Assembly: GCA_965205265.1 (NCBI GenBank) | Contig: CBDBGH010000003.1 | Location: 2,816,001 to 2,880,000 of the forward strand | Origin: Alphaproteobacteria bacterium | Lineage (GTDB): Bacteria; Pseudomonadota; Alphaproteobacteria; Bin95 | Length of the DNA stretch: 64,000 nt | Reading direction: 5' to 3' | In this document: positions 10,619 through 30,627 of the stretch, in pieces | How the letters are laid out: every line of letters starts with the position of its first letter | How positions within the stretch are numbered: position 1 is the stretch's first letter | The notes under the pieces: generated by a model | Told to the model about the DNA's origin: nothing | Database searches by the model: none | The model's input: only the letters and a program-made list of their open reading frames with translations | Made by a program: the position numbers and the translations under genes

Positions 10619-10852
10619 ATGACGGCCTGGAAACTCGACCCCGCGATTGCTGAGCTCCGGGCCGTCAAGGACGCCTACGCGGCGGAATTCGACTTCGACA
10701 TCGACGCGATTTGCGACCGCCTCATTGCCATGGAGAAGACTTCGGGCCGCGATTATGTCTCGCACCCTCCGCGCCGTGTCGCAGCGGAAGCGCCGGTGAT
10801 TTGTACGCCAAGTGAACCACTGGGGAACGATGATGGCGACAACCCGACCTGA
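10619..10852 (+). CDS. Small hypothetical protein (paralog 1 of a tandem pair)
   Basis: DPAIAELRAVKDAYAAEFDFDIDAI...RDYVSHPPRRV; GGAG RBS; paralogous to the next ORF. Confidence 0.75.
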   Translation: MTAWKLDPAIAELRAVKDAYAAEFDFDIDAICDRLIAMEKTSGRDYVSHPPRRVAAEAPVICTPSEPLGNDDGDNPT

Positions 10853-11021
10853 CCCGATAATCGCAGAAGTCCGGGCGGTGCGTGACGCGCATGCAGCCCG
10901 TTTCAACCACGATGTGAAGGCAATCTTCGAGGATATCCGCGCAAAGCAGAAGGCTTCGGAACGAGATTATGTCTCCTGTCCTCCCCGTCGCGTCATGGCG
11001 GAAGCGCCGAACGGGGAGTAA
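10830..11021 (+). CDS. Small hypothetical protein (paralog 2 of a tandem pair)
   Basis: DPIIAEVRAVRDAHAARFNHDVKAIFEDI...RDYVSCPPRRV. Confidence 0.78.
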   Translation: MMATTRPDPIIAEVRAVRDAHAARFNHDVKAIFEDIRAKQKASERDYVSCPPRRVMAEAPNGE

Positions 11022-11195: not shown

Positions 11196-11324
11196 GGTGT
11201 TTTTACGTCTTCGACCCGGTCGCCGCTTGCCCGAATACCGCGAGGCACCCGTTCTCAAACGGTCTCTGACATCGCATATCAAGAAAAATTACCGATATTC
11301 TTGAATTTTGTTCCCTGTATGGGC

Positions 11325-11351
11325 TTGACATCTGGCGGATTGTGGTATGAT
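11325..11351 (+). promoter_or_regulatory. Sigma70-type promoter of cassette copy A
   Basis: TTGACA-N15-TATGAT with TGn extended -10, AT-rich upstream tract and TCAAGAA-N12-TTCTTGA palindrome (11279-11304); homologous promoter in copy B. Confidence 0.7.
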
Positions 11352-11360
11352 GGTCCCCAA

Positions 11361-11559
11361 GGAAGCGGACTCCGGAGCCGCCTCCCCGGGTGCCGCGCGG
11401 CCGAGCGGCGCCAGTTTCTGAAAACCCGTGAGAAGCCGACGGGAGACGTGCGCCCTGTGCCTCGCGCGCGCAATCAGGCGCGCGAACCGCGCCGCCGCGT
11501 AACGCCCGCCCGCGCCGGCACAGGCGCACGCGCGGGAGACGCGCGAAACAGGGACCCGC
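11361..11559 (+). ncRNA. Candidate structured leader / ncRNA, copy A
   Basis: Starts just after the promoter; blocks conserved with 24231-24440 (-): 39/42 and 23/27 identity, plus a GGAAGC-TCCGGA-GCYTCC hairpin. Confidence 0.5.
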
Positions 11560-11582
11560 TCCCCGTCGGAGGAGGAGAGACG

Positions 11583-12191
11583 ATGACCGCAACCGACCCC
11601 CGCCCCGCACTGGCGGCGATGCTGGCCGAAAAGTTGGCCCCCGCCGCCGCAGCCCTTGCCGAAGCTTATGCCCAGGACATGGGCGCAGCGCCGCCGCCGG
11701 AGGACGACCGCGCCCTTGCCGACCGTCACCGCGCCGGACGCGCCGCGCTCTCCCATCTGCGCCAGCTCCTCAACCTCCTCGACTGGGCCGCCGCCCGCAT
11801 GCCCGAACCGGAGCCGGCAGTCGTCGAAGAGCCGGCGGAGGACCTCGACGACTGGGTTCCGGAGCCGGAGCCCGAGACCGGCTATGACGGCAGCGAGGAC
11901 GAATACCACTATTTCGACGAGGTCTATGTCGGCAGCCAGCAGACGCCGGAGTTCCGGGCCTGGCATGCGGAGCAGGAGCGTCGCTTCGGGCCGCTGGTGC
12001 CGGACGAGGACAGTTACGACGGCAGCGAGGACTACTACAACTTCGGCGAGCGCCAGTATGTGGGCAAGCTGACCACGCCCGCGTTCTACGACTGGCTCGC
12101 CCGCCAGGAACGCCGCGAGGCCGCAGAACTCGCCGCAACGGAGGCCGCAGAAGGAGGCGGGGGTGCGGGGTTCAATGGACGGGGAGAGTAG
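11583..12191 (+). CDS. Orphan 202-aa protein: helical N-domain plus two 44-aa acidic/aromatic repeats
   Basis: Strong GGAGGAG RBS; GC3-biased codons; repeats YDGSEDEYHYFDEVYVGSQQTPEFRAWHAEQERR and YDGSEDYYNFGERQYVGKLTTPAFYDWLARQERR. Confidence 0.75.
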   Translation: MTATDPRPALAAMLAEKLAPAAAALAEAYAQDMGAAPPPEDDRALADRHRAGRAALSHLRQLLNLLDWAAARMPEPEPAVVEEPAEDLDDWVPEPEPETGYDGSEDEYHYFDEVYVGSQQTPEFRAWHAEQERRFGPLVPDEDSYDGSEDYYNFGERQYVGKLTTPAFYDWLARQERREAAELAATEAAEGGGGAGFNGRGE

Positions 12192-12288
12192 AAATCGGGC
12201 CGTATCGCCTGCCCGTCCCTCCCGCTTGCGGCGGAAATCGTCCTCACCCTGCCTGCCTTGCCCCCTCCCTCGCTTGCTCCTTTCTTCT

Positions 12289-12565
12289 CCTCCCCCGCTT
12301 GCGGGAGGCCGGGTGGGGCCCTCCCGGCGAGCCTGCCCCGGACCCCGATCCGGGGGGCACCTCCCGGGCTTCGCCCGCCGCTTGCGCTGGCGTGCAAGCG
12401 GCCCCTCACCCAACCCTCTCCCGGGGGGAGAGGGCTTTCCTGCGGAGGCGGCGTTCCATCTTGCCTGCCCCAATCCCTCCTTCGCTTGCGAGGGAAGGGT
12501 TGGGGCGGGAGGCCGTCTTTCCGCACGACGGCCTCTGCCGGGCTTCGCCCGCAGGCGGGGAGGGA
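12289..12565. repeat. Cluster of CCCTC(T)CCC...GGGAG(A)GG-type palindromic REP-like units
   Basis: cctcccccgcttgcgggagg, cccctcacccaaccctctcccggggggagaggg, ccctccttcgcttgcgagggaaggg, cccgcaggcggggaggga. Confidence 0.75.
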
Positions 12566-12585
12566 AGTCAGCGCACGGATAGCTT

Positions 12586-12690
12586 CATGCCTGAAACGGC
12601 TACAGCATATGAACCTGGCGCATGCAAAACATGACATTTCATGACGCCGGCCGGAGAGGGCCATGACCGAACATGACATCCCATGACATC
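12586..12690 (+). repeat. Phased CATGAC array (2+3 copies, 10-bp period), copy A
   Basis: CATGAC at 12630, 12640, 12662, 12672, 12682, preceded by the conserved ACAGCATATG...CGCATGCA block. Confidence 0.85.
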
Positions 12691-12747
12691 GGCCGGGAGG
12701 CGTCCCGGCAGCCGCTCTCCAGCGCCTTCGCCGGAACCCGGTCCGGT

Positions 12748-13830
12748 TCAGCCGCGCAGCGCCGGGAGGACCTCGGTCTCGATCAGCTGCTTTGCGACCG
12801 GCCCGGCCCCGCCTCCGGCGCTGCGCCAATTGCCGTTGACGACGATCTTGTCGAGCCCGAGCGCCCGCAGCCGGACGAGCCGTTCCAGCACCCGCTCCGG
12901 CGGCCCGACGGCGGCGTATTCCCGGATGAACGCCGGCGTCAGCACCGCCGCCTGCGCCGAATCGCCCTCCGTGTGCCTGTGCATGTCATAAGCCTGGCGC
13001 ATCGCCTCCATCACCCGGCGGTTCTCTTCGGAGAGCGGGCCGCTCGCCCGGCCGTGCATGACGGCGAAGCGCGCGAAGACGGTCAGGTTGCCGCGCACCA
13101 TGTCCTGGGCGGCTTCCATGTCGGGGTGGCAGCCGCAGGACACATAGGCGCCGAAACGCAGGCCTTCCGGGTCGAGGCCGGCCGCCTCGCGCGCCGCCCG
13201 GGCGGCGGCGATGCCCCAGGCGAGGCGCTCCGGCGAGGCGCCGAGCGCGAACATCACCCGGTCCGCCCGGCGCGCGGCGATGGCGATGACCTTCGGCCCC
13301 GTCGCCGCGACCTCGACAAGCGCCTTGCCGTCCCGCGCCGCAGCCCCGGCCATCCACCGGATGCGGCTCGCCGCCGGCGTCTCGGCGAGCGCCAGCGTCT
13401 CCACCGGCGGCGCGGATGCGGCCGGAATATCGACCAGCTCCTCGAACGCCACCTCGCCGCCCGACAGATAGGCCTGGAGGTGGGTGAGATAGCGCTCGAA
13501 CTGCCCGAGCCGCGCCGGGGCGCGGCCGAGATGGGCGAGCGCGGAATCGCCCCGGCCGATGCCGAGCGTCATCCGCCCCCGCGACACGCTGTTGACCGTG
13601 GCCGCCGCCGAGGCCAGCACCGCGGCCGTCCGCGTGACCGGATTGGAGACGCCCGTGCCGAGCCCGAGGCGCCGGGTAACGGTGGCCGCCATGGCCAGCG
13701 CGACGAAGGAATCGGCCGCGAGGTTCTGGGAATCGACGACATTGACGCCGTCCCAGCCGCTTTCCTCCAGCGCCCGCGCCTCGTGCAGAATGCCGCGCGG
13801 CGCGGGCATGCAATTGGTCCAGATTTCCAT
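12748..13830 (-). CDS. LLM-class (luciferase-like) flavin-dependent oxidoreductase
   Basis: DSQNLAAD, LGTGVSNPVTR, LGIGRGDSAL, AATGPK motifs; ATG at 13830 chosen over the track start. Confidence 0.9.
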   Translation of the reverse strand: MEIWTNCMPAPRGILHEARALEESGWDGVNVVDSQNLAADSFVALAMAATVTRRLGLGTGVSNPVTRTAAVLASAAATVNSVSRGRMTLGIGRGDSALAHLGRAPARLGQFERYLTHLQAYLSGGEVAFEELVDIPAASAPPVETLALAETPAASRIRWMAGAAARDGKALVEVAATGPKVIAIAARRADRVMFALGASPERLAWGIAAARAAREAAGLDPEGLRFGAYVSCGCHPDMEAAQDMVRGNLTVFARFAVMHGRASGPLSEENRRVMEAMRQAYDMHRHTEGDSAQAAVLTPAFIREYAAVGPPERVLERLVRLRALGLDKIVVNGNWRSAGGGAGPVAKQLIETEVLPALRG

Positions 13831-13985
13831 GAGCCCCCGATTCCCTCCCTGCGGGCAAGACGCGCGGGCCGGATTATTCCCGCTTCCGCGCCGCCCGCAA
13901 CCGCCGGCCGTTCCCTTGCGGCGGCCGGTCGTGGCAGTCTCCGCGCCCGGGCCCCTCCCCACCGGCGCCATGCAGGAGTTGGACC

Positions 13986-14855
13986 ATGAACCGACTGTTC
14001 ACCGAGGCCGAATCCGCGGAGATCGTCATCGAGCGGCTGGCCGGCTGCGACGATCCGCGGTTCCGCGCGGTCATGGAGGCCGCCATCCGGCACCTGCACG
14101 CCTTCGTGAAGGAGGTGGAGCCCACCGTCGGGGAATGGGCGCAGGCCATCCGGTTCCTGACCGCCACCGGGCAGATGTGCGACGACCGCCGCCAGGAATG
14201 GATTCTGGCCTCCGACGTGCTCGGCGTTTCCATGCTGGTGGAGACGCTGAACAACCGCTCCGAGGGCGGCGCCACGGAGGCGACGGTGCTCGGCCCCTTC
14301 CATGTCGAGGGCGCGCCGCAGCTCGAGCCCGGCAGCAATATCTGCCGGGACGGCAAGGGCGTGCCCTGCCTCGTCTCCGGGCGCGTCACCGATGTCGAAG
14401 GCAGGCCGCTGGCCGGCGCGGTCCTCGACATCTGGCAGACCGATGCGGACGGCTTCTACGACGTGCAGCAGCCGGAACTGCAGCCGGAGATGAACCTGCG
14501 CGGGCGGTTCCTCACGGGCGCGGACGGGCGCTATTCCTTCCGCACGGTGAGGCCCGTGTCATATCCGGTGCCGACCGACGGCCCGGTCGGGGACATATTG
14601 AGGCGCATGGGCCGGCACGCCTGGCGCCCGGCGCATATCCACTTTATCGCGAGCAAGCCCGGCTACCGGCGGCTCGTGACCCACATCTTCGCCCATGACG
14701 ACCCCTATATCGATTCGGACGCGGTATTCGGGGTCAAGGAATCGCTGCTGGTCGAGTTCCGCGAACATGACGACGGCGAGCAGGCGCGCGAGCTCGGCGT
14801 GGAGGCGCCCTTCTGCACCGCGGAGTTCGACATCCGGCTCGCCCGGGAAGGCTGA
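13986..14855 (+). CDS. Intradiol ring-cleavage dioxygenase (hydroxyquinol/catechol 1,2-dioxygenase-like)
   Basis: RQEWILASDVLG, TVLGPF, GFYDVQ, YPVPTDGP, RPAHIHF, DSDAVFGVK. Confidence 0.93.
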   Translation: MNRLFTEAESAEIVIERLAGCDDPRFRAVMEAAIRHLHAFVKEVEPTVGEWAQAIRFLTATGQMCDDRRQEWILASDVLGVSMLVETLNNRSEGGATEATVLGPFHVEGAPQLEPGSNICRDGKGVPCLVSGRVTDVEGRPLAGAVLDIWQTDADGFYDVQQPELQPEMNLRGRFLTGADGRYSFRTVRPVSYPVPTDGPVGDILRRMGRHAWRPAHIHFIASKPGYRRLVTHIFAHDDPYIDSDAVFGVKESLLVEFREHDDGEQARELGVEAPFCTAEFDIRLAREG

Positions 14856-14867
14856 GGCCGGGCGGGG

Positions 14868-15761
14868 CTACGGCGCGCGGACGAGCGCCGCGGCCTGCGC
14901 GGCGGAGAAGGCTTCCGCGCGGCCGCAGAACTGGCAGACCATCTCCAGCGAGCCGTCCTCCCGGCGCATGTCCTCCATCTCGCCGGCGGAAAGCGCGCGG
15001 AGCACGGTTTCCATCCGCGCCCGGCCGCCGCAGCGGCAGCCGTCGCGAAGCGGGCGCTGGGGATCGACGCGCAGCTCGTCGCGGTGGAAGAGGCGCAGCA
15101 GCAGCGCGTCGCCCGGCAGCGCGGGGTCGAGCAGTTCGTCCGGACCGACGGTGAGCATGTAGTGCCCGAGCCGGGTCCAGAGATCGCCGGTCTCCTCGGG
15201 CGGGTCCGGCTCGTCCGGGAGGCGCTGGAGCATCAGCGCCGCCGCGCGCCAGGCCCCGCCCCGCCGGCCGCAGGCGGCCGCAAGGCAGGTGTCGATCTGC
15301 TCCGACTGGCGGAAATAATGCAGCACGGACTGCGCGAGGCCGCCCCTGGCCAGTTCGACCACGCCCTGGTAGCGCTCGCCGCCGTCCGCCGGATCGAATG
15401 TGAACGCCAGATAGCCGGCGCCGAACGGGCCGCCGCCGGCCTCTGCCGGCCCGGCCTCGCCGTCGAAGCCGGCAAAGCCGCGCATGAGCCCCGCCGCGTC
15501 TATATCCGCCACCAGCCGGCGGATCGCGCCGTCGCCTTCGACCTGAAGCGTGAATATGCCGCCCGCCTTGAGCGACTGCGCGAGCGCGGCCGCGACCGCC
15601 AGCGATTCGCCCAGCACCGCCGCCGCTGCATCCGGATAGGCGTGCCGGTCGAGGATGCGCGCGACCTCCGGCCCGAGGCGCACGAGGCGGCCGCGCACCC
15701 TTGTGCCGGCCAGCCGGAAGGGTCTCACATAATCGTCGCGAAGCGCCGCGCGAGCCTCCAT
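14868..15761 (-). CDS. hslO: Hsp33 redox-regulated chaperone
   Basis: VRGRLVRL, YQGVVEL, YFRQSEQI, CRC...CQFC zinc motif; downstream of argF. Confidence 0.92.
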   Translation of the reverse strand: MEARAALRDDYVRPFRLAGTRVRGRLVRLGPEVARILDRHAYPDAAAAVLGESLAVAAALAQSLKAGGIFTLQVEGDGAIRRLVADIDAAGLMRGFAGFDGEAGPAEAGGGPFGAGYLAFTFDPADGGERYQGVVELARGGLAQSVLHYFRQSEQIDTCLAAACGRRGGAWRAAALMLQRLPDEPDPPEETGDLWTRLGHYMLTVGPDELLDPALPGDALLLRLFHRDELRVDPQRPLRDGCRCGGRARMETVLRALSAGEMEDMRREDGSLEMVCQFCGRAEAFSAAQAAALVRAP

Positions 15762-15770
15762 GCGCCGGCG

Positions 15771-16673
15771 CTACCGCCCGAGGCACCAGGCGAGAATGCC
15801 CTTCTGCGCATGCAGCCGGTTTTCCGCCTCGTCCCAGACGGCCGATTGCGGCCCGTCGATCACGGCGCCGGAAACCTCCTCGCCGCGGTGCGCCGGCAGG
15901 CAATGCAGGAAAATGGCGTCCGGCCGCGCCCCGGCCATCAGCCGCTCATCGACGCGGTACGGCGCCAGCAGGTTGTGGCGGCTGCTCTCGCTGCCGTCAT
16001 TCATCGACACCCAGACGTCGGTGACGACCGCATGGGCGCCGGATACAGCCGCCGCCGGGTCGTCGTGGAGGCTCACCCGCGCGCCGTTCGCTTCCGCCCA
16101 GGCGAGCGCGTCGGCCGGCGGACGGCGCTCCGGCGGGCAGCCGACGGCGAGGTCGAAATCGAAGCGCGCCGCCGCGTGGATCCAGCTCGTGGCGACATTA
16201 TTGCCGTCGCCGCTCCAGGCGATGCGCTTGCCGGCAATGGCGCCGCGCCGCTCTTCGAAGGTCATCACGTCCGCCATGAGCTGGCAGGGATGCGAGCGGT
16301 CGGTCAGCCCGTTGATGACCGGCACTTCGGCATTGGCGGCGAGCTCGGTCAGCTTGTCGTGGCTGTCGGTGCGGATCATGATCGCATCGACATAGCGCGA
16401 CAGCACCCGTGCCGTATCGGCCCAGCTCTCGCCGCGCTTGACCTGGGTTTCCTGGCCGGAAAGCACGATGACATGGCCGCCGAGCTGGCGCATGGCGACC
16501 TCGAAGGACACGCGGGTGCGCGTCGAGGGCTGCTCGAAGATCATCGCGAGCGTCTTGCCCTCGAGCGGCCGGTCCGGGTCCCCCGCCTTGAAGGCGAGGG
16601 CCCGGTCGAGGATGCGGCGGAGCGCGGCCCCGTCGTAATCCTTGAGGTCGAGGAAGTGGCGCGGCGCGCTCAT
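15771..16673 (-). CDS. argF: Ornithine carbamoyltransferase
   Basis: [35 protein letters not shown]. Confidence 0.97.
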
Positions 16674-16679
16674 ACGCTC

Positions 16680-17861
16680 TCACGCAGCGGCGGCGGCGAA
16701 TTCCCGGCAAGCGCCTTCGACCATGCCGACCGCCTCGCCGATATGCGAGTCCTCGACGACGAGCGGCGGCAGCAGCCGCACGACATTCTCGCCCGCCGGC
16801 ACCGCGAGCAGGCCCTGGCGGCGCAGTTCGCCCACAAATTCGCCGTTGGCGGGGCCGGTGCGCAGCCCGACCATCATGCCCGTGCCGCGCACTTCCAGGA
16901 TCGTGTCCGGATAGCGCGCCGCGAGCGCCGCGAGGCGCCCGTGCAGATCCCTGGCACGCGCCTGCACGTTGTCGAGGAAACCCTCGGCCAGCAGCGCGTC
17001 GAGCACGGCGTTGACGACGGCCGTCGCCAGCGGGTTGCCGCCGAATGTGGAGCCATGCGTGCCGGCGACCATGCCCGACGCCGCCTCTTCCGTCGCGAGG
17101 CAGGCGCCGACCGGGAACCCGCCGCCAAGGCCCTTGGCGAGCGCCATCACGTCCGGGCGGATGCCCGACCATTCATAGGCGAACAGCTTGCCGGTGCGGC
17201 CCATGCCGCACTGCACCTCGTCGAGGAACATCAGGAGGCCGAACTCGTCGCAGATCTCGCGCACGCCCTTGAGGTAGTCGGCGGACATCGGGCGGATGCC
17301 GCCCTCGCCCTGCACCGGCTCGACCAGAATGGCGCAGGTCTCGCCGGTGACGGCCGCGCGCAGCTCGTTGAGATTGCCGAAGGCCACCTGATCGAAGCCC
17401 TCGGTAACCGGGCCGAAGCCCTTGTAGAGCTTCTCCTGGCCGGATGCGGCGATGGAGGCGAGCGAGCGGCCGTGGAAGCAGCCCTCGACCGTGATGATGC
17501 GGAAGCGCTCCGGCTCGCCCTTGTCCGCATAGTGCTTGCGGACGAGCTTGATGCCGCATTCGATGGCCTCGAGGCCGGAATTGCAGAAGAAGACCGTGTC
17601 CGCGAAGCTGTTCTCGGTCAGTCGTCGCCCGGCTCGCTCCTGATTGGGAATATTGTACAGGTTCGAGGTATGCCAGAGTCGGCCGGCCTGATCCTGGAGC
17701 GCGGCGACAAGGCCGGGATGGGCGTGGCCGAGAGCGGTCACGGCGATCCCGCCGCCGAAGTCCAGGAACCGCCGCCCGTCGGACGCGAAGAGGTAGGGGC
17801 CCTCGCCTTTCTCGAAAGCGATGTCCCGATCCCCGTAGGTCGGCATCAGGGGGGCGATCAC
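16680..17861 (-). CDS. argD: Acetylornithine aminotransferase
   Basis: LMPTY, FFCNSG, FHGRS, EPVQGEGG, DEVQCGMGRTG, AKGLGGGFP, HGSTFGGNP; GTG start inferred. Confidence 0.95.
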   Translation of the reverse strand: MIAPLMPTYGDRDIAFEKGEGPYLFASDGRRFLDFGGGIAVTALGHAHPGLVAALQDQAGRLWHTSNLYNIPNQERAGRRLTENSFADTVFFCNSGLEAIECGIKLVRKHYADKGEPERFRIITVEGCFHGRSLASIAASGQEKLYKGFGPVTEGFDQVAFGNLNELRAAVTGETCAILVEPVQGEGGIRPMSADYLKGVREICDEFGLLMFLDEVQCGMGRTGKLFAYEWSGIRPDVMALAKGLGGGFPVGACLATEEAASGMVAGTHGSTFGGNPLATAVVNAVLDALLAEGFLDNVQARARDLHGRLAALAARYPDTILEVRGTGMMVGLRTGPANGEFVGELRRQGLLAVPAGENVVRLLPPLVVEDSHIGEAVGMVEGACREFAAAAA

Positions 17862-17971
17862 GATCGGGTCTCCTTCGGATGGTGCTTCAAACGACATCCC
17901 CGCCGCAGGCCGGCGGGGAAGCGCGCAATAGTGGTTGCCGGGCGGCTTATGTCAATGCCCGGCTTGAGGCC

Positions 17972-18697
17972 TCAGTCCTCGCGCACGCCGGCGGCGAGAT
18001 AGCCGCCGTCCACCGGCAGCACGACGCCGCTGACATAGGCCGCCGCCTCGCCGGCGAGGAACACCGCCGCATCCGCCATCTCCTCGGGGAAGCCGTAGCG
18101 CGCTGCCGGGATCATGCGATGGTAGTTGGCGCGGGCGGCCGGCGTGTGGTGGGCGCGGGTCAGCGCGGTATCGACCGGCCCCGGCGCAATCGCGTTCACC
18201 GTGACGCCGAAGGGCGCCAGTTCCATGGCCGCCTGTTGCGTGAGCGCGACAACGCCGGCCTTGGAGATGCCGTAGGCCATCCGTTCGGCCCCGACGCGCA
18301 CGCCGGAGATGGAGGCGATATTCACGATGCGCCCGTAGCCGGCTTCGACCATGGGGCGCGCCGCTTCCTGCAGACAATAGAAGCTGCCGTAGAGGTTGAT
18401 CCGGAGCACGCGGTCGAAATCTTCCGGCGTTACGTCGAAGATGGCATGGCGGACGCTGATGCCCGCGACATTGGCCAGAATGTCGATGCGGCCGTGGCGC
18501 GCGACCGTCTCCGCGACCAGCCGCCGGGCGTCCTCCGGCTTCGAGACGTCGATGGCGAGGCCGCCCGGCCCGAGCCCGTCCGCCTTCAGGTCGCTCTCCA
18601 CCACTTCCGCCCCTTCGGCGCGAAAGGCTGCGGCAATCGCCCCGCCGATCCCGCCGCCGGCCCCCGTCACCGCCGCTACCCGCCCTTGCAACCGCAT
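17972..18697 (-). CDS. Short-chain dehydrogenase/reductase
   Basis: TGAGGGIG, NVAG, YGISK, NAIAPG, VDGG. Confidence 0.93.
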   Translation of the reverse strand: MRLQGRVAAVTGAGGGIGGAIAAAFRAEGAEVVESDLKADGLGPGGLAIDVSKPEDARRLVAETVARHGRIDILANVAGISVRHAIFDVTPEDFDRVLRINLYGSFYCLQEAARPMVEAGYGRIVNIASISGVRVGAERMAYGISKAGVVALTQQAAMELAPFGVTVNAIAPGPVDTALTRAHHTPAARANYHRMIPAARYGFPEEMADAAVFLAGEAAAYVSGVVLPVDGGYLAAGVRED

Positions 18698-18866
18698 GGC
18701 TTTGTTTCCTTTCCGCGAAAGTCCAAACCCCGACAGCCCGGTCTCACGCCGGGAATCCGGACGAGGCTAGCACATGCCTGCGGCGCACCGGCATCGATAG
18801 CCTGCAAACGCGCGCGCGACGGGGTAGTATGCGCCGCACCGATATATCCGGCCGGAGGCAGGGCGT

Positions 18867-19823
18867 TTGCCCATTACGCTGCGCCAGTTGCGCTATTTTC
18901 AGGCTCTCGTCGCGCACGGCTCCTTCAGCCGCGCCGCGGAGAGCGTATTCGTGTCCCAGCCGGCGCTTTCGCTCCAGATTCGCGAGCTTGAGGCGACGCT
19001 CGGCGGGCCGCTGGTGGAGCGCGAGAGCCGCGGCGTTCATCTCACCCGCCTCGGCCGGGAGGCGCATGAGCAGACGCTCCAGATTCTGGACGAGACCAAT
19101 TTCCTCGAGCTCATGGGGAAACAGTTCGATGACGGCCGGGCAACCGTCGCTGTCGGCATTATTTCCACCCTGTCGCCCTATCTGCTGCCGGGCCTTCTCG
19201 AGCGCTTGCAGGAAACGACGCCCCGCATCGAACCCAGCGTCGTCGAGGCGACCGGCAACGAGTTGATATCGGGCCTCCAGTCGGGCCGCCTGGATGCTGC
19301 GATCCTGTCCCTTCCGGTCGGCGTGATCGAGTTCCCGGAGCGGGAATTGTTCGAAGACCGGTTCCTGGTCGCGGGCCTCGCCGGCTTGCTGGACGCCGTC
19401 CGCTCGCATTCCGATTCCCCCCGGCCCGAGGATCTGGCGCGGGCCGATATCGGGCCGCTGCTTACCCTTGCGGACGGGCATTGCCTCGCCGACCAGGTTC
19501 TGGGGGCCTGCTCGATGTGGCGCCAGCAGGACGTCCACCGCGGCGCCGGCTCGCTGGCCACGCTTTCGCGTCTGGTCGCGGGCGGCGAAGGTATTGCGCT
19601 CATTCCGGAGACCGCCCTGTCCTGCGAAAGCGGGATGTCTCCCGGCCTTCGCTTCCTGCGCTTCGCCGCGCCGGAGCCGCTGCGCCGGATCGGCCTGATC
19701 CATCGCTTGGCTGCCCACGGCCAGCGCTGGATCGACCCCCTGGCCGAAGCGGTGGCGGATGCCGGCAGGGACCTGACCGGACAGGCGCGCCGGCTGGTGG
19801 CCGAGGCTCCAACGGCCGCCTGA
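18867..19823 (+). CDS. oxyR: LysR regulator, OxyR-like
   Basis: TLRQLRYF...SQPALSLQIRELE HTH; DGHCLADQVLGAC carries both OxyR-type cysteines; SLATLSRLVAGG. Confidence 0.7.
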   Translation: MPITLRQLRYFQALVAHGSFSRAAESVFVSQPALSLQIRELEATLGGPLVERESRGVHLTRLGREAHEQTLQILDETNFLELMGKQFDDGRATVAVGIISTLSPYLLPGLLERLQETTPRIEPSVVEATGNELISGLQSGRLDAAILSLPVGVIEFPERELFEDRFLVAGLAGLLDAVRSHSDSPRPEDLARADIGPLLTLADGHCLADQVLGACSMWRQQDVHRGAGSLATLSRLVAGGEGIALIPETALSCESGMSPGLRFLRFAAPEPLRRIGLIHRLAAHGQRWIDPLAEAVADAGRDLTGQARRLVAEAPTAA

Positions 19824-19854
19824 GCCGGGCCGCCGCGGGTCCTTACCGCCCGCA

Positions 19855-21558
19855 CTATCCGCCTGCCGCCTTCGCCATGAAGTCGAAATCGCAGCCCCGG
19901 TTCGCCTGGGTCACGGTCTCCAGATAGAGCTTGAGATAGCCGCGTTCGGAACCGGCATGGGCCGGCGGGCTCCAGCCGGCGCGCCGCCGGGCGAGCTCCA
20001 CCTCGTCCACCAGCAGGTCGAGGCGCCGCCCCGGCGTGTCGAGGCGGATGCGGTCGCCCGTCCGGACGAGCGCGAGCGGCCCGCCGACCGCCGCCTCCGG
20101 GCAGCAATGCAGCACGATCGTGCCGAAGGCCGTGCCCGACATGCGCGCGTCGGAGATCCGCACCATGTCGCGGACGCCCTGTGCCGCGAGCTTTTTCGGG
20201 ATGGGCATCGAGCCCGCCTCCGGCATGCCCGGCGCGCCCTTCGGTCCGGCATTGCGGAGCACCAGCACATCGTCCGCCGCCACATCGAGGCCGGGGTCGT
20301 CGATCCGCGCCGCGAGGTCCTCCAGCCCGTCGAACACCACCGCCCGGCCCTCATGCGCGAGCAGGTCCGGGCTCGCCGCCGACTGCTTGATGACCGCCGT
20401 GTCCGGCGCGAGCGTGCCGCGCAGCACGGCGACGCCCCCTTCCGGCCAGATCGGGTCCGCCAGCGGCCGCACGACCGCCTGGCCCGGATGCTCGTCGGCC
20501 GCCCCGTCGATCTCCTCGCCGAGCGTGCGCCCCGTCACCGTCAGCGCGTCGAGGTTCAGCAACGCCCTCAGCTCCTTTAGGATGGGCGCCGCGCCGCCCG
20601 CGCGGTGCAGGTCCTCCATGTAGTGTTGGCCAGAGGGCTTGAGATCCACCAGCACGGGCGTCTCCCGGCCCATCGCATCGATGGCGTCGAGGTCCACCTC
20701 GATCCCGAGCCGGCCGGCGACCGCCGCCATGTGGATCAGGCCGTTGGTCGAGCCGCCGACGGCAAGCAGCATGCGAAAGGCGTTCTCGAAGGCGGCCGGC
20801 GTCATGATGCGGTCGGGAGTCAGCCCCTCCCCGGCCAGCGCCACGGCACGGGCCCCGGTGGCCTCCGCATGGCGCAGGCGGTCGGCATGGACCGCCGGGA
20901 TGGCCGCGCCGCCCGGCAGCATCATGCCGACGGTCTCCGTCATCAGCGCCATCGTGGAGGCGGTGCCCATCACCATGCAGGTGCCGGCCGTCGGCATCAG
21001 CCGTCCGCCCGCGAGCTCGATTTCGGCCTCGTCCATATCGCCGGCCCGATAGAGTCCCCAGAGCCGCCGGCAGTCCGTGCAGGCGCCGAGCCTCTCGCCC
21101 CGGAAATGGCCGGTCATCATCGGTCCCGTCACCTCCATGATGGCGGGAATGCCCGCGCTCGCCGCGCCCATCAGCAGCGCCGGCACCGTCTTGTCGCAGC
21201 CGCCGATCAGCACCACGGCGTCCATCGGCTGGGCGCGGACCATCTCTTCTGTGTCCATCGCCATGAGGTTGCGCAGGAACATCGAGGTCGGGTGCGAAAA
21301 GCTCTCGTGGATCGAAATCGTCGGGAAGCGGATCGGCAGCCCGCCCGCATGCATGACGCCGCGCTCGATGGCGGCGATCAGGTCCGGCACGGTGCGGTGG
21401 CAGCCATTGAAGCCGCTGAACGTGTCGGTGATGGCGACGATCGGGCGTTCGAGCGCCTCGTCGGAATAGCCCATCGCCTTGATGAACGCCTTGCGCAGGA
21501 AGAAGGAGAGCCCGGCGTCGCCGTATTGGGCGAGGCCGGAACGGATGCCATCGGTCAC
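19855..21558 (-). CDS. IlvD/Edd family dehydratase
   Basis: GTG at 21558; NGCH, RNLMAM, GGCDKTVP, GTCMVMGTASTM, GGSTN, GPKGAPGMPE, SDARMSGT. Track ORF 19855..22641 runs on into the IS. Confidence 0.93.
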   Translation of the reverse strand: MTDGIRSGLAQYGDAGLSFFLRKAFIKAMGYSDEALERPIVAITDTFSGFNGCHRTVPDLIAAIERGVMHAGGLPIRFPTISIHESFSHPTSMFLRNLMAMDTEEMVRAQPMDAVVLIGGCDKTVPALLMGAASAGIPAIMEVTGPMMTGHFRGERLGACTDCRRLWGLYRAGDMDEAEIELAGGRLMPTAGTCMVMGTASTMALMTETVGMMLPGGAAIPAVHADRLRHAEATGARAVALAGEGLTPDRIMTPAAFENAFRMLLAVGGSTNGLIHMAAVAGRLGIEVDLDAIDAMGRETPVLVDLKPSGQHYMEDLHRAGGAAPILKELRALLNLDALTVTGRTLGEEIDGAADEHPGQAVVRPLADPIWPEGGVAVLRGTLAPDTAVIKQSAASPDLLAHEGRAVVFDGLEDLAARIDDPGLDVAADDVLVLRNAGPKGAPGMPEAGSMPIPKKLAAQGVRDMVRISDARMSGTAFGTIVLHCCPEAAVGGPLALVRTGDRIRLDTPGRRLDLLVDEVELARRRAGWSPPAHAGSERGYLKLYLETVTQANRGCDFDFMAKAAGG

Positions 21559-21656
21559 GGGTGGAGCGCCTTTCGATCGTTCGGGGCGGAAGGGTTCGAG
21601 TTTGCGGCCCCGGGAGCGGAGGGCCAAGCCCGATGTGTCATGGAGTGTCATGTTTT
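21487..21656 (+). repeat. 170-bp direct repeat, left copy (IS target duplication)
   Basis: Identical by eye to 23573-23742; abuts the left TIR. Confidence 0.93.
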
Positions 21657-23572
21657 CCTGACTTCGACGGTTGGGCTGACTTCTGACCGATCTCGCGTCT
21701 GGAGTTTTCAGTAAAGCCAATGAGTTGGCAGTTGCGGTGCGGTCAAGCTGCGTTGTAGTGCCTAGTAAATCTTTGAGACTGTCAATGCCTCCGCCACGCG
21801 CTACACTCCCCCCATGTTCGTGCGCATCAAGACCTCCCCCAACAGCCCGCGACGCTCGGTCCAGATCGTCGAGGCCGTGCGCGACGGCGGCAAGGTCCGA
21901 CAGCGCATCGTCCGCCATGTCGGCGTGGCCATGGACGAGGACGAGCTCGAGCGCCTGAGGCAGCTCGGCGAGTACGTCAAGGCGAAGCTGGAGGACGAGC
22001 GTCAGCCGGCATTGTTTGCGCCCGAGAAGATCGCTGAGCAGGCGATCCGTGTCGGCCGCCGGGGGGACGGCAAGGAGGAACTCCCGGTCGACCTCAAGCA
22101 GCTTGAAGAGGAGCAGCGCCTGATCACAGGCATCCACGAGGTCTATGGCGAGATCTACCGGCTGCTGGGCCTCGACGCGCTGCTGCCGCGCTCGCGCTAC
22201 CGGGCCTCCCATGACGCGCTGTTCCATGTGGTGATGGCGCGGGTAGCCAACCCCGACAGCAAGCGGGGCAGCGTGCGCCGGCTCGAGGAGGACTTCGGCG
22301 TGAGTCTTCCGCTCGAGAAGGTCTACCGGATGATGGATCAGCTCGACGCGACGGTGATCGAGCGACTGCGCACGCGCGTCGGCGAGGCGAGCCGGTCGCT
22401 GCTGCCGGAGCCGGTCGCGATCCTCTTCTTCGATTGCACCACGCTCTACTTCGAGACGGCCGCCGAGGACGAGCTTCGCCAGCACGGCTTCAGCAAGGAC
22501 GGCAAACACAAGGACTCGCAGGTTCTGCTGGCGCTGATGGTGACGCGCGAAGGGCTGCCGATCAGCTACGAGGTCTTCCCCGGCGCCACCTACGAGGGAC
22601 ACAGCATGGTCCCGGTCCTGCAGGACATGCAGCGCCGCCACCAGGTGGAGCGCACGGTATGCGTGGCCGACCGGGGCATGCTGAGCGCCGACAACCTCGA
22701 CGCCATGGACGCCATCGGCGGCGAGTATGTCGTCGGCGCGCGGCTGCGCAAGCTGCCGCTCGCGCTGCTGGGGCAGGTTCTCGACCCCGGGACCTATGCC
22801 CCGCTGGAGGGCTCACAGGACCGCCGGGTCGGCGAGTGGGAGTACAAGGGCCGTCGCCTGATCGTCGTCTTCTGCCCCCAGCGCGCACGCAAGGACGCGC
22901 ACGAGCGCCGCCATCAGGTGGAACGCCTGCTCGACAGGCTGGCCCGCAGCGACAATCCCAGGGAACTGCTCTCCAATCACGGGGCGAAGCGCTTCATCGC
23001 CGTCGAGGGCGACGCACGGCTCACGGTGAACCCGGAGAAGATCGCCGAGGCCGCACGATGGGACGGGCTCACCGGCGTCATCACCAATCTGCGCGACGCG
23101 CGCGTCACCGAAGTGATGGCTCACTACCAGGGGCTCTGGCAGGTCGAGGAGAGCTTCCGGATCACCAAACACGACCTGAAGATACGTCCCATCTGGCACT
23201 GGAACCCGGACCGGATCCGCGCTCACATCGCCATCGCCTTCCTGGCCTTCGCCTGCGTTCGACACCTTGCGTACCGCGTCGCCATCCAGAAGCGGCGGAT
23301 GTCCCCGGAGGTCATCCGCTCCGCCCTCGTCCACCGCCAGTGCTCCCTGCTGCGCTGTCGGCAATCGGGCAACCGCTACGTCATCCCCTCGAAGCCGACA
23401 CCGGCGGCGGAGCAGATTTACGCAACCATGGGGCTGCCCCTGACGATCACCCCGTATCAACTCGCCTGACCGTCGACGAAGCACGGCTCGAAGAAATGCC
23501 GGATGTAGTGCCTAGCCGAAATGAGAACCAGGCAATATCAACTACTTATGCGAATCAACCGTCGAAGTCAGG
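21657..23572 (+). mobile_element. IS1634-family insertion sequence (1916 bp)
   Basis: Perfect 17-bp TIRs CCTGACTTCGACGGTTG / CAACCGTCGAAGTCAGG; long flanking direct repeat; single transposase. Confidence 0.93.
21814..23469 (+). CDS. IS1634 family DDE transposase
   Basis: MFVRIK...VRDGGKVRQRIV, FFDCTTLYFE, GFSKDGK, VADRGM, YQGLWQVEESFRITKHDLKIRPIWHW, IRAHIAIAFLA. Confidence 0.93.
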   Translation: MFVRIKTSPNSPRRSVQIVEAVRDGGKVRQRIVRHVGVAMDEDELERLRQLGEYVKAKLEDERQPALFAPEKIAEQAIRVGRRGDGKEELPVDLKQLEEEQRLITGIHEVYGEIYRLLGLDALLPRSRYRASHDALFHVVMARVANPDSKRGSVRRLEEDFGVSLPLEKVYRMMDQLDATVIERLRTRVGEASRSLLPEPVAILFFDCTTLYFETAAEDELRQHGFSKDGKHKDSQVLLALMVTREGLPISYEVFPGATYEGHSMVPVLQDMQRRHQVERTVCVADRGMLSADNLDAMDAIGGEYVVGARLRKLPLALLGQVLDPGTYAPLEGSQDRRVGEWEYKGRRLIVVFCPQRARKDAHERRHQVERLLDRLARSDNPRELLSNHGAKRFIAVEGDARLTVNPEKIAEAARWDGLTGVITNLRDARVTEVMAHYQGLWQVEESFRITKHDLKIRPIWHWNPDRIRAHIAIAFLAFACVRHLAYRVAIQKRRMSPEVIRSALVHRQCSLLRCRQSGNRYVIPSKPTPAAEQIYATMGLPLTITPYQLA

Positions 23573-23742
23573 CGCCTTGCGCAGGAAGAAGGAGAGCCCG
23601 GCGTCGCCGTATTGGGCGAGGCCGGAACGGATGCCATCGGTCACGGGTGGAGCGCCTTTCGATCGTTCGGGGCGGAAGGGTTCGAGTTTGCGGCCCCGGG
23701 AGCGGAGGGCCAAGCCCGATGTGTCATGGAGTGTCATGTTTT
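23573..23742 (+). repeat. 170-bp direct repeat, right copy (contains a duplicate of the first ~24 codons of the dehydratase gene)
   Basis: Identical by eye to 21487-21656; abuts the right TIR. Confidence 0.93.
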
Positions 23743-23834
23743 GTCATGGGGACCGGCGGGACACTGTGCGATATGTCATGCGATGTCATGATCTGCATGC
23801 GTGCAGAGCATATGCTGTGGCCCGTCCGGGCATG
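23723..23834 (-). repeat. Phased CATGAC array (2+3 copies, 10-bp period), copy B
   Basis: GTCATG on + at 23723, 23733, 23743, 23775, 23785, followed by TGCATGCG...CATATGCTGT; homologous to 12586-12690. Confidence 0.85.
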
Positions 23835-23858
23835 GGCGCGACTATTCCATTCGGTTCC

Positions 23859-24141
23859 CAGGGCAATCGCTTTTGAAGATTTGCGAGCAGGGCGCATGGG
23901 ATGGACCGAGGCCCGGCGTCCCCGCCTCCTTCCCATCCCTCTTCCCGTCATGCCCGGACTCGCTCCGGGCATCTCCCGCCGCTGCTTCCGCCGAACGGCC
24001 GCATGGATACCCGGAACGAGTCCGGGTATGACGGAGGGGGCGTTCGGACATGATGGAGGAGCCTGCCCTGAGCTTGTCGAAGGGGGCGTTCGGGCATGAC
24101 GGGGGTGTTCACGCATAGCAAATCCGAAAGCGATAGCCCTG
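23859..24141. mobile_element. 283-bp MITE with ~25-bp TIRs and a 10-bp target-site duplication, carrying REP cargo
   Basis: TIRs cagggcaatcgcttttgaagatttgc / gcaaatccgaaagcgatagccctg; ATTCGGTTCC at 23849-23858 and 24142-24151. Confidence 0.85.
23947..24101. repeat. REP doublet with duplicated tail and nested CCTGCCCTGAGCTTGTCGAAGGG
   Basis: Same family as 334-421 and 27004-27111. Confidence 0.88.
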
Positions 24142-24230
24142 ATTCGGTTCCGGTGACTGTTTGTCTTCGGCATAGGTTGTTCCTTTCACTCCTGTTTCGT
24201 TCCGTTCGTCCCGCCGTTGGCCGGCCGGCG

Positions 24231-24440
24231 GCGGGACCCTAATTCGCGCGTATCCCGAGCGCGGGCGCCCGCGCCCGTGGGCGGGCGTATCGCGCCGGCG
24301 CGGTTCGCGCGCCTGATTGCCCGCATGTGCTTGCGCGCGCGAGCCAGGCGCAGGGCGCACCTTGCCTGTTGGCCGAATCGGGGGCTTTTTTCGCGCCGGC
24401 GCCGACGCGGAAGAGGAAGCGGCCTCCGGATGCTGCTTCC
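24231..24440 (-). ncRNA. Candidate structured leader / ncRNA, copy B
   Basis: Collinear conserved blocks with 11361-11559, directly downstream of the promoter. Confidence 0.5.
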
Positions 24441-24453
24441 TTCCTTTCGTCCC

Positions 24454-24480
24454 ATTATAGCACATTTTTCTAAAAAACAA
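24454..24480 (-). promoter_or_regulatory. Sigma70-type promoter of cassette copy B
   Basis: TTGTTT-N15-TATAAT with TGn extension (TGCTATAAT) and AT-rich upstream tract; same spacing as copy A. Confidence 0.7.
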
Positions 24481-24607
24481 GATCATAACTGGAATTTATT
24501 CGATATTCATGAACAAAGGTCATATTCGCTCTCGCGGCCGGGTGCGGCTTCCGCCAGGAGTCGGGGAGGCGTAGGCTCGTTCCCGGCGCGATTCGGAGAG
24601 GAAACCG

Positions 24608-28405: not shown

Positions 28406-29286
28406 GCCTGCCCGTCTGGCGCTCGCTGCTGTTCATCCCGGCGACGGCGCAGAAATTCATCGAGAAGGGCCCCGGCGTCGGGGCCGACGGGCTGATCCTC
28501 GACCTGGAGGACTCGGTCGCGGCCAATGCCAAGGAGGCCGCCCGCGCCGCCGCGCCGGACATCGTGCGCGGCTTCGCCTCGCAGGGCATCGACACGCTGG
28601 TGCGCATCAACCGGCCCTGGCGGCTCGCGGTGCGCGACCTGGAGGCCGTCGTCATCCCGGAGCTCACCGGCCTGCTCTGCCCGATGGTGGACAGCGCCGC
28701 GCATGTGATCGCGCTGAGCCAGACGGTGGCCGAGCTGGAGACCGAGCGCGGCATCCCGGCGGGGCAGGTCAGGCTCTGCATCGCCGTCGAGACGGCGAAG
28801 GGCTATCTCAACCTCCGCGAGATCGCCCATGCCGACCCGCGCAGCGTCTCGCTGTCGCTCGGCTCGGAGGATTTCGGCCTCTCCATGGGCATGACCGCCG
28901 ACGAGGAGACGCTTTACGGCCTGAAGCAGCAGGTGGTCGCCTGCGCCAGGGAGGCCGGCATCCTGCCGATGGGCTTCGTCGGCTCCATCGCCGAGTTCCG
29001 CGACATAGAGGGTTTCCGGCGCATCGTCCGCCGGTCGAAGAAGATGGGCCTCCAGGGCGCGTCCTGCATCCACCCGAACCAGGTGCGGATCTGCAATGAG
29101 GAGTTCGGCCCGACCGGGGCGGAGGTCGATGAGGCCCGGCGCGTGATAGAGGCCTATGACGAGGCGCTGGCGCGCGGCGAGGGCGCCATCACCGTGGACG
29201 GCAAGATGGTGGACGTGCCGGTCGCCGAGCGCGCCAAGGCCGTGCTCCGCATCGCCGACGCAATCGCGGCCCGGCAGGCCCGCTGA
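28402..29286 (+). CDS. CitE/HpcH-type CoA-ester lyase
   Basis: RSLLFIP, LDLEDSV, VRIN, GSEDF, CIHPNQV, GKMVDVP. Confidence 0.92.
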   Translation: MSLPVWRSLLFIPATAQKFIEKGPGVGADGLILDLEDSVAANAKEAARAAAPDIVRGFASQGIDTLVRINRPWRLAVRDLEAVVIPELTGLLCPMVDSAAHVIALSQTVAELETERGIPAGQVRLCIAVETAKGYLNLREIAHADPRSVSLSLGSEDFGLSMGMTADEETLYGLKQQVVACAREAGILPMGFVGSIAEFRDIEGFRRIVRRSKKMGLQGASCIHPNQVRICNEEFGPTGAEVDEARRVIEAYDEALARGEGAITVDGKMVDVPVAERAKAVLRIADAIAARQAR

Positions 29287-29298
29287 CGGTTCCCCCGT

Positions 29299-30627
29299 TC
29301 AGACTCCTGCCGCGAAGAGGGCGAGGCCGGCGAGCGCGGCCATGGCAAGGGTGCGGAATGCGCCCTGACGCAGCATGAAGAGCGCGGCGGCGGCGAGCGC
29401 GGCGAGCGCGAGCGCCTTCAGGTCGAGGCTCGCCGGGTCCGGCAGATAGACCGAGACCGGGCCCGCCTCGGCCCGCGCGCCTGCCGCGAACAGCACGTTG
29501 AGCGCGAACCAGGCCGAGAGGTTGGCGATCACGCCCACAACGGCGGCCGTCACGCCCGCCAGCGCAGCCTGCAGGCCGGGCCGGCCCCTGAGGCGCTCGA
29601 CATGCGGGGCGCCGGCGAAGATGAACAGGAAGCAGGGCGCGAATGTGACCCAGAGCGTCAGCCCTGCGCCCAGCAGCCCCGCAACCAGCGGGTCGAGCCC
29701 GCCGGCCTCGCGCCATGCCGCGAGGAAGCCGACGAATTCCACCACCAGGATGAGCGGCCCCGGCGTCGTCTCCGCGAGCCCGAGCGCATCCAGCATCTCG
29801 CCGGGCGCCAGCCAGCCCCTTGCGGCCACGGCCTCCTGCGCCACCCAGGAGAGCACCGCATAGGCCCCGCCGAAGGTCAGCACCGCCATCTTGGAGAAGA
29901 AGACGGCGATGCCGGAGAACACATGCCCGCCGCCGAGCCAGGCCAGCAGGACCGCCGTCGGCAGCAGCCAGGCCGCGAGCAGGACGAGCGCCACCCTGCC
30001 GGTTCCGGACCGCCTGCCGGCTGGGCCGGGGGGACCGGCCGGCGCCTCCGCCGCCCCAGTCCCGCTTCCGCCGCCGAAGAACGCCCGCGCGCCGCCCAGC
30101 AGCGCCGCCGCGGCGATGACGGCCGGGAAGGGCGCATCGAACAGGAAGAGCGCCGCGAACGCTCCGCAGGCGAGCGCCCAGGCGAAGCCGTCCTTCAGCG
30201 CCCGCGCGCCGATCCTGAGCAGCGCCTCGACGACCAGCGCCAGCACCGCCGCCTTCACGCCGAGAAAGGCCGCCTCGACCGCCGGCAGCCGGCCGTAAAG
30301 CGCATAGACGGCGGCGAGCGCGGCGATGACGACCGCGCCGGGCAGGATGAACAGCAGCCCCGCCGCCAGGCCCCCGCGCATGCCGTGCAGCAGCCAGCCG
30401 GTATAGGTGGCGAGCTGCTGCGCTTCGGGGCCCGGCAGCAGCATGCAGAAATTGAGCGCATGCAGGAAACGCGGCTCGTCGAGCCAGCGCTTCTCCTCCA
30501 CCGCGACGCGGTGCATGAGGGCGATCTGCGCCGCCGGCCCGCCGAAACTGGCGAACCCGATCCGCGTCCAGGCGGCCAGCGCCTCCCGGAACGGAACCGG
30601 CGCGTCCGGCGGCGTCTCCGCGCTCAG
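29299..30627 (-). CDS. chrA: Chromate efflux transporter (long-chain CHR), probable CTG start
   Basis: LPGPEAQQ, TFGGAYAVL, ETTPGPL motifs; the conserved IGFASFGGPAAQIA lies upstream of the first ATG (30516); CTG overlaps the upstream TGA. Confidence 0.88.
   Translation of the reverse strand: MSAETPPDAPVPFREALAAWTRIGFASFGGPAAQIALMHRVAVEEKRWLDEPRFLHALNFCMLLPGPEAQQLATYTGWLLHGMRGGLAAGLLFILPGAVVIAALAAVYALYGRLPAVEAAFLGVKAAVLALVVEALLRIGARALKDGFAWALACGAFAALFLFDAPFPAVIAAAALLGGARAFFGGGSGTGAAEAPAGPPGPAGRRSGTGRVALVLLAAWLLPTAVLLAWLGGGHVFSGIAVFFSKMAVLTFGGAYAVLSWVAQEAVAARGWLAPGEMLDALGLAETTPGPLILVVEFVGFLAAWREAGGLDPLVAGLLGAGLTLWVTFAPCFLFIFAGAPHVERLRGRPGLQAALAGVTAAVVGVIANLSAWFALNVLFAAGARAEAGPVSVYLPDPASLDLKALALAALAAAALFMLRQGAFRTLAMAALAGLALFAAGV

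Follow-up and report, generated by a model that had tools for sequence, protein, structure and literature searches.

Phage-inducible chromosomal islands (PICIs) and the pathogenicity islands of Staphylococcus aureus (SaPIs) are islands of about 10-15 kb with an integrase, att sites, and replication and repressor modules. Canonical small terminase subunits (TerS) are proteins of 140-180 aa, and pac sites lie within terS genes and are made of phased boxes. Pho-box-type arrays, the sites of OmpR/PhoB-family regulators, consist of TGTCA-containing repeats with a period of 11 bp. The packaging operon of SaPIs, operon I, contains terS and is under LexA control (PMC5052747). Here, a 64-kb stretch of DNA (G000:C3:2816001-2880000, on contig C3 of genome G000; "the window") was analysed, in which two units, copy A and copy B, share a promoter-like region and leader at one end and an array of CATGAC repeats at the other. 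They are two of about 70 small, dispersed units on the chromosome of the sponge symbiont G000, each a putative transcription unit standing by itself. The family seems to go back to a terS-like gene of the SOS type, an orphan that has a phased CATGAC array at its end. That they are orphan terS/pac-like cassettes exploited by a helper phage is possible, and this reading is proposed tentatively.

A preliminary description of the window had reported two loci that are collinear at both ends and differ in the middle. Both copies are present as described, and their likeness is far beyond chance. When both leaders and both 3' modules were searched against the genome by BLAST, 77 leader loci and 67 3'-module loci were found, all on contig C3. 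For 56 of the 77 leaders, a 3' module follows on the same strand no more than 5 kb downstream, and 12 3' modules were unpaired. The most conserved 136-nt block (window 11434-11569) gave 73 matches, including one spurious match and one fragment; the two at 343 and 4632910 represent one unit that the assembly contains twice. CATGAC-N4-CATGA arrays occur 91 times in G000 (reversed pattern as control, 0 occurrences), and 72 of them lie 3' of a same-strand leader core, at a distance of 0.1-2.5 kb. Several of the 19 arrays without leader are fragments split off by insertion sequence (IS) elements, for example beside copy B. The 5' and 3' modules are found linked genome-wide and in one orientation; therefore, they do not occur independently of each other.

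The unit plan is an AT-rich tract, a promoter-like TTGACA-N15-TGnTATGAT, a GC-rich leader of ~200-230 nt, one open reading frame (ORF) and the 3' CATGAC array, together 0.4-1.4 kb long. The promoter previously given as TTG-N18-TATRAT reads TTGACA-N15-TGn-TATGAT in copy A. In the consensus of 71 copies, conservation runs from the AT-rich tract through TTGAAT-N15-TGCTATGAT into the leader. A sigma-70 promoter and terminator scan, which required a spacer of 16-18 nt, found no sites in copy A or copy B. Because the 15-nt spacer lies outside this range, the putative promoter is assigned from conservation and the TGn extended -10. The CATGAC positions are phased by 10 bp (e.g. 570/580/613/623/633). 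Copies read the 3' module in differing frames, and therefore the conservation of this module is not protein-coding. The units are intergenic and spread over 4.6 Mb (gene calls for the context analysis came from a codon-usage caller built in this work), and no integrase or transposase gene lies inside them, as had been stated for the first two. These results indicate that the proposed cassette family, in which the 5' and 3' modules are conserved and the cargo can be exchanged, is real.

Cargo classes were defined from the ORFs starting at the conserved ribosome-binding site (RBS), and three were distinguished: TerS-like proteins of 303-311 aa, a ~200-aa family, and short or decayed ORFs. The TerS-like protein is made by seven copies and starts with MP(V/A)LDPTLSLSSRQEAFCRHY. 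It matches Pfam Terminase_2 (PF03592, E 4e-13, 50.6 bits versus a cut-off of 26.1, residues 11-85) and the terminase small subunit family phrog_51 (E 5.5e-14), and the family profile matches solved DNA-binding domains of SF6/SPP1-type TerS (PDB 2CMP, 4ZC3 and 3ZQP, E 5e-9 to 3e-8). In the AlphaFold2 (AF2) model, a helix-turn-helix (HTH) at residues 12-50 (predicted local distance difference test, pLDDT, above 90) is followed by long helices (52-106) and then by partly disordered helical segments. All seven Terminase_2 matches in G000 are unit cargo. The earlier suggestion that full-length copies might encode a terminase was followed up, and these seven encode a TerS-like protein with a TerS DNA-binding domain. 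They are 89-100% alike across about 1.28 kb, their flanks are unrelated, and their ends read (A)ATTGTTC... and ...CATGACATTTCATGACATCCCATGAC/AC.

The 202-aa class of copy A is present in about a dozen G000 copies. The GC content of the copy A ORF by codon position is 0.79/0.49/0.82. At E<=1e-3 its product has 151 homologues, the least similar of which are about 50% identical across almost the full length, and none of these carries a name or a Pfam domain. The AF2 model (pLDDT 77) shows a helical hairpin and two beta-hairpin/helix repeats. Foldseek against the PDB returned nothing at E<=1e-3, searches of Pfam, PADLOC and NCBIfam gave no match, the ESM Atlas gave unnamed clusters only (0.84-0.85), and a weak match to phrog_31793 was obtained (E 3e-5). 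Kinship with the TerS-like protein was considered and rejected (hhalign probability 0.1). Most units are short (400-800 bp), with a ~31-aa ORF (MPKTRSxRNRxEYPxP...), or are deletion derivatives whose array follows directly upon the initial codons of the TerS-like or the 200-aa class. The TerS-like genes of all lineages examined and the consensus of the 200-aa family end in ...HD(I/K/N)(S/T), with the stop codon inside the second CATGAC repeat.

Of 16 other genomes of the genus, 13 contain leader DNA, and none of the eight genomes searched from two sister genera does. Three single weak leader matches in other families (E 2e-4 to 8e-4) are probably noise. The leader core motif has 92 matches in genome G005 and 118 in G012, and the reversed control has none. 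The TerS-like protein occurs in 12 of the 16 genus genomes, with at most 16 copies each, and none of 20 genomes from the two sister genera has it. Related loci belong to sponge-associated uncultured Alphaproteobacteria or to metagenome-assembled genomes (MAGs) labelled 'Rhodospirillaceae'. In other sponge-symbiont MAG lineages, the TerS-like genes encode 340-420 aa with 37-48% identity (whole-protein alignment). These distant genes have no GC-rich leader. Their promoters are AT-rich with canonical spacing, e.g. TTGCAT-N16-TATACT, a GAAC-N7-GAAC box lies between the -10 and the RBS, and terminal CATGAC (or CNTGAC) repeats are kept, three in number and at 10-bp spacing. We take GAAC-N7-GAAC to be the alphaproteobacterial LexA box; the lexA gene of G000 has GAACCAATATAGAAC upstream.

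The ancestral layout shown by these distant genes is promoter, GAAC-N7-GAAC box, terS-like gene and three CATGAC repeats. The distant units keep the promoter, the terS-like gene and phased repeats with a TGAC core; therefore, these parts are the probable core of the system. On the same comparison, the leader is a putative later replacement, specific to the genus, of the operator region. The preliminary description had counted the leader among the defining ends of the element, and this has to be given up, as it is a genus-specific addition missing from the units of distant relatives.

The CATGAC repeats are the best candidate for the binding site of the TerS-like protein, because no other cargo has a DNA-binding domain and because the terS-like gene stays linked to them with a fixed stop register across lineages whose TerS-like proteins share only 44-48% identity with that of G000. 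It had been supposed that the units are served by a protein encoded elsewhere, and the TerS-like protein of sister copies is a plausible candidate for this role. As the repeats are 10 bp apart, they would lie on one face of the helix. If the units are terS/pac-like cassettes, the TerS-like protein of the seven intact copies would oligomerise and bind the array as a pac-like site, and the bound protein would recruit the large terminase of a helper phage, whether infecting or induced. The DNA beside each unit would then be packaged one way, as in SaPI/PICI TerS and in lateral transduction. Units with other cargo or none would keep the cis site and be served in trans, and the genus-specific leader of ~200 nt would have taken the place of the LexA operator region. 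Arrays facing inward would package the enclosed segment together with the partner unit, which could favour retention of convergent pairs.

The arrangement of the units on the chromosome is not random. Adjacent convergent pairs in G000, with the arrays facing inward, are a median of 15.5 kb apart (n=22), whereas adjacent divergent pairs are a median of 89 kb apart (n=22) and none is closer than 41 kb (Mann-Whitney p=1.7e-7). The 28 gaps below 35 kb comprise 20 convergent, 0 divergent and 8 tandem ones, and 20 close convergent pairs were reached in 0 of 100,000 orientation shuffles (permutation p<1e-5). G005 behaves likewise, with medians of 15.9 kb (convergent) versus 76.8 kb (divergent; p=1.5e-6) and with 20 convergent and 3 divergent gaps below 35 kb. 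This geometry calls for a polar mechanism. The segments enclosed by 21 convergent pairs span 7.8-55.6 kb and hold unrelated ordinary genes. Shared content inside the 21 pairs was looked for and rejected; the largest cluster consists of paralogues of the short-chain dehydrogenase/reductase (SDR) type, with 10 proteins in 7 pairs. Another rejected candidate is an origin of the pairs by replicative transposition with inversion. In the one case compared, the A/B interior in G012 gives no indication of inversion, the halves of the interior are collinear with their own flanks, and unit A is missing at the site.

Several points weigh against the terS/pac reading. Packaging leaves the arrival of units at new loci unexplained. 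Of 72 G000 units, only 3 still have the exact GAAC-N7-GAAC box. The TerS-like proteins have in the AF2 model a long, partly disordered acidic tail, unlike canonical TerS. The pair geometry of G005 does not count as independent replication, because ancestry and many orthologous unit sites are common with G000. TerL (PF03354, PF03237) and the HK97 capsid (PF05065) have no match in G000, whose completeness is 98.98%, and the only portal trace is a sub-threshold fragment on contig C2 (20818-21054). Among the phage contigs of IMG/VR, no close TerS-like relative was found, with four matches of 28-36% identity covering the HTH only; these searches revealed no helper phage. As to contig C2 itself, its 43 kb resemble about 1.5 rounds of a circle of about 28.3 kb (the genes at 252-2828 recur at 28551-31127); it is 49% coding by the host codon model and carries no CATGAC arrays.

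The units might instead be a non-autonomous, MITE-like (miniature inverted-repeat transposable element) family mobilised in trans by an enzyme, with the TerS-like HTH protein as an end-binding or accessory protein and the array as the end site. This is somewhat unlikely, although the roughly 70 copies, dispersed, intergenic and sharply bounded, the internal-deletion derivatives of the TerS-type unit, and tandem and partial units adjoining existing arrays all favour it. A check for empty sites gave a positive answer that points the same way. At 6 of 40 G005 unit loci (L174, L179, L181, L183, L184 and L195), the G000 flanks are contiguous without the unit, and at L174 and L179 a 9-bp and an 11-bp sequence, respectively, flanks the G005 insert on either side and is present once in G000. 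These repeats fit target duplication or microhomology deletion alike. At L195, in contrast, an insert of 489 bp stands in place of 11 bp and no duplication is seen, and 42-47 bp are replaced at L181, L183 and L184. Furthermore, the unit ends ((A)ATTGTTC... / ...CATGACAC) have no terminal inverted repeats, and no catalytic domain was found in any cargo with Pfam, AF2, PADLOC or NCBIfam. Many units stay at orthologous sites in G000 and G005, as also in G007 and G014; in some cases the cargo at such a site differs, or the units there are tandem or partial. The mobility suggested earlier has only indirect support, from the six vacant loci; the ends have no terminal inverted repeats, and the flanking repeats at L174 and L179 can be read either way. 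Between-species synteny breaks coincide with units. The G005 unit at L195 has a GTTC-N7-GTTC (LexA-type) box, conserved in both species, at a distance of about 20 bp, and the equivalent site in G000 (C3:2159761-2159791) is empty.

Multicopy genes for a regulatory RNA or small protein are an unlikely account, in which the leader would be a riboregulator, protein sponge or sensor and the array a 3' regulatory element of RNA or DNA with no part in packaging. The 24-nt leader core hardly varies among the 62 aligned copies or between species, the leader is retained as the cargo decays, and the P1 hairpin keeps its pairing through base changes (columns 84/93: UG 30, UA 21, CG 7, GU 1, none unpaired), all of which speak for an RNA. 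Contigs of one sponge metatranscriptome run span the unit, with the highest depth on the leader core, but this depth is uninformative on expression, because the units are multi-copy and DNA carry-over is possible. On the other side, Rfam gave no match in the window at the gathering threshold, and only noise of the miRNA type in 11200-12800 at E<=5. The fold z-score of the copy A leader is -1.63, RNAalifold on the MAFFT alignment predicted 15 pairs of which 1 covaries, and a hand-assembled structure of 36 pairs has 90.7% paired cells versus 89.6% in shuffles. Pairs with compensatory changes show no excess (8 observed versus 7.1 in shuffles), and distant TerS-like units keep arrays without the leader. 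For the "structured leader" of the preliminary description, the conservation was therefore confirmed, mainly at the level of primary sequence, and the structure was not, with covariation weak and the fold as given above. A further reading, and quite an unlikely one, makes the TerS-like protein a domesticated factor for transcription or the nucleoid, or else a decoy against phages that would titrate their terminase, with the arrays as its sites on the chromosome and the convergent pairs as domain boundaries. The lack of phage morphogenesis genes in G000, the long retention at orthologous sites and the non-random pair geometry around ordinary genes would suit such a factor, but neither PADLOC nor NCBIfam has a match and many copies are decayed. 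The 63 units examined also show no orientation bias to flanking genes (upstream 34 same and 29 opposite; downstream 31 same and 32 opposite), and for this reason units as regulators of adjacent genes were rejected.

If the terS/pac reading is taken to its end, the units are a new class of minimal pac cassettes, terS-like/pac-like and self-standing, with derivatives served in trans, seeding one-directional phage packaging at about 70 chromosomal sites, which in itself is improbable. Were it true, units facing each other 5-33 kb apart would each transduce the enclosed genes plus the partner unit, and the persistence of convergent rather than back-to-back pairs would be explained. Dozens of orphan packaging-initiation modules could make any compatible phage carry defined segments of the chromosome. 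This would be a built-in, SOS-timed gene exchange in uncultured sponge symbionts, a route not described for such symbionts, and a new, very small phage-dependent element. Independent of mechanism, the units form a large unannotated family, with about 70-120 copies per genome, and bring new families of 200-aa and long TerS-like proteins.

The features of copies A and B are collected in Table 1. For copy A, BLAST likeness to sister copies begins at 11269-11287, and contigs of other public samples part from it at 11283. At the right edge, other-sample contigs having two repeats diverge after 12645. The filler between the ORF and the 3' module contains a stretch like repetitive extragenic palindromes (REPs) at 12192-12570. 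Alignment with sister copies stops at about 12169 and resumes at about 12483, and a contig of run X5 lacks the filler, with 12148 joined to 12575. In copy B, the short ORF is broken by a MITE at about 24103-23946, similar copies of which are found elsewhere in the genome.

Table 1. Features of the two units and of the segment between them (window coordinates; UTR, untranslated region)
Feature	Position	Strand	Basis
Copy A, whole unit	about 11283-12692	+	sequence reading
Copy A, 5' module: AT-rich tract, TTGACA 11325-11330, 15-nt spacer, TGn + TATGAT 11346-11351	11283..11351	+	reading and consensus
Copy A, leader, putative 5' UTR; RBS about 11569-11579	11352..11582	+	62-leader alignment
Copy A, P1 hairpin GGAAGCGG...CCGCCTCC	11361-11385	+	sequence reading
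Copy A, GTGCGCCCTG, then near-invariant core GCAATCAGGCGCGCGAACCGCGCC	core 11470-11493	+	
Copy A, cargo ORF, 202 aa, ATG at 11583	11583..12191	+	
Copy A, REP/MITE-like filler between ORF and 3' module	12192..12585	.	sequence reading
Copy A, 3' module: CATGCC..CATATG..GCATGC, then five CATGAC in 10-bp phase (12630, 12640, 12662, 12672, 12682)	12586..12692	+	
Copy B, whole unit, same 5' and 3' modules as copy A	about 24528-23718	-	
Copy B, 5' module: AT-rich tract, TTGTTT 24480-24475, 15-nt spacer, TGn + TATAAT 24459-24454	24454..24528	-	
Copy B, leader, ending at ATG 24173	24174..24453	-	
Copy B, cargo remnant, short MPKT..NR-class ORF (MPKTNSHRNR...), start 24173	23839..24173	-	
Copy B, 3' module: five CATGAC (23790, 23780, 23748, 23738, 23728)	23718..23838	-	
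Segment between the convergent copies A and B: metabolic and housekeeping genes	12748..21655	.	Pfam

The segment between copies A and B is unique in G000. Its Pfam matches are a luciferase-like monooxygenase, catechol dioxygenase, Hsp33, ornithine carbamoyltransferase, a class-III aminotransferase, an SDR and dihydroxy-acid dehydratase. The two copies are 12.9 kb apart, a distance which includes a 1.9-kb IS and a 170-bp duplication, and in G005 the orthologous pair is separated by 10.2 kb. This IS (1917 bp, window 21656-23572) sits just past the array of copy B, encodes a 551-aa DDE_Tnp_1 transposase and is flanked by the 170-bp direct duplication (21487-21656 = 23573-23742); about 75 copies exist at 99.7-100% identity. 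Immediately 5' of copy A (10619-11020) are two tandem small paralogous ORFs, both ending in ...DYVS.PPRRV.AEAP. The orthologous site in G012 is without these two ORFs, unit A and two downstream genes. The monooxygenase and dioxygenase genes just 3' of the copy A array (12748-14855) are placed elsewhere in G002 and G012, and the gene content beside arrays differs between species.

Other repeats adjoin the arrays. An IS-like repeat of 16 copies, starting with GGGGCTTATATGGATAGGTTGAC, has 5 copies inserted directly after the CATGA of unit arrays, 3 further copies adjoin GTCATG, and the remaining insertion sites are AT-rich (C3 sites e.g. 980253, 1205677, 4009082, 3619630 and 1589128); the arrays are insertion hot spots. 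The repeat end GGAG(T/C)GGGCCCC..GGACAGTT adjoins the 3' side of at least 9 arrays (e.g. C3 656, 647608, 1271100, 1576906, 3365209 and 3851418) and is found away from units too. The last 0.83 Mb of C3 holds no units save the duplicate of the unit at 343, and many IS copies lie there. Two stretches of C3, its first 27 kb and 36.6-61 kb, recur near the contig end at more than 99.9% identity (4632568-4659093 and 5407582-5432139). G000 is rated 7.28% contaminated, and a mis-join or a second replicon inside C3 is possible.

The family fits no described element, as the preliminary description had supposed: the units pass the membership criteria of none of the families compared below. In the literature on sponge-symbiont terminase repeats, CATGAC arrays and LexA satellites, supplements aside, no description of the units was found, and for LexA-controlled satellites the work on SaPIs and PICIs was the only one returned. 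Like SaPIs and PICIs, the units have a chromosomal, non-phage gene of the terS type and a candidate cis site at the gene end, and the presumed SOS control of the ancestral units parallels the LexA control of the terS operon described for SaPIs. Unlike them, the units are 0.4-1.4 kb long without integrase, att site, replication, repressor or capsid-remodelling genes. They number about 70 per genome rather than one or few, carry exchangeable cargo, and have the leader in the operator's place. The TerS-pac systems of SPP1 and SF6 are matched by the N-terminal domain of the TerS-like protein and by helically phased direct repeats at or inside the gene end. In contrast to a phage pac region, the terS-like gene has no adjacent terL or morphogenesis module, the flanks are unrelated beyond about 1.28 kb, and the site is present at about 90 places in the genome, many of them without a terS-like gene.

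High copy number, intergenic position and deletion derivatives of a longer coding copy are shared with MITEs and non-autonomous IS derivatives. However, the units lack terminal inverted repeats, the longest copy has no transposase domain, and they carry a conserved promoter-like region of their own. A variable ORF with a conserved 3' cis element, and unrelated cargos sharing the same ends, recall integron cassettes, but the units are dispersed instead of standing in an array by intI, have their own promoter-like region, and end in direct repeats, not in an attC-type imperfect palindrome. Finally, the arrays resemble Pho-box-type arrays in that the complementary strand of their direct repeats contains TGTCA and each helical turn has roughly one repeat. 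They differ from these in having a period of 10 bp, not 11, and in sitting at 3' ends without an orientation relation to neighbouring genes.

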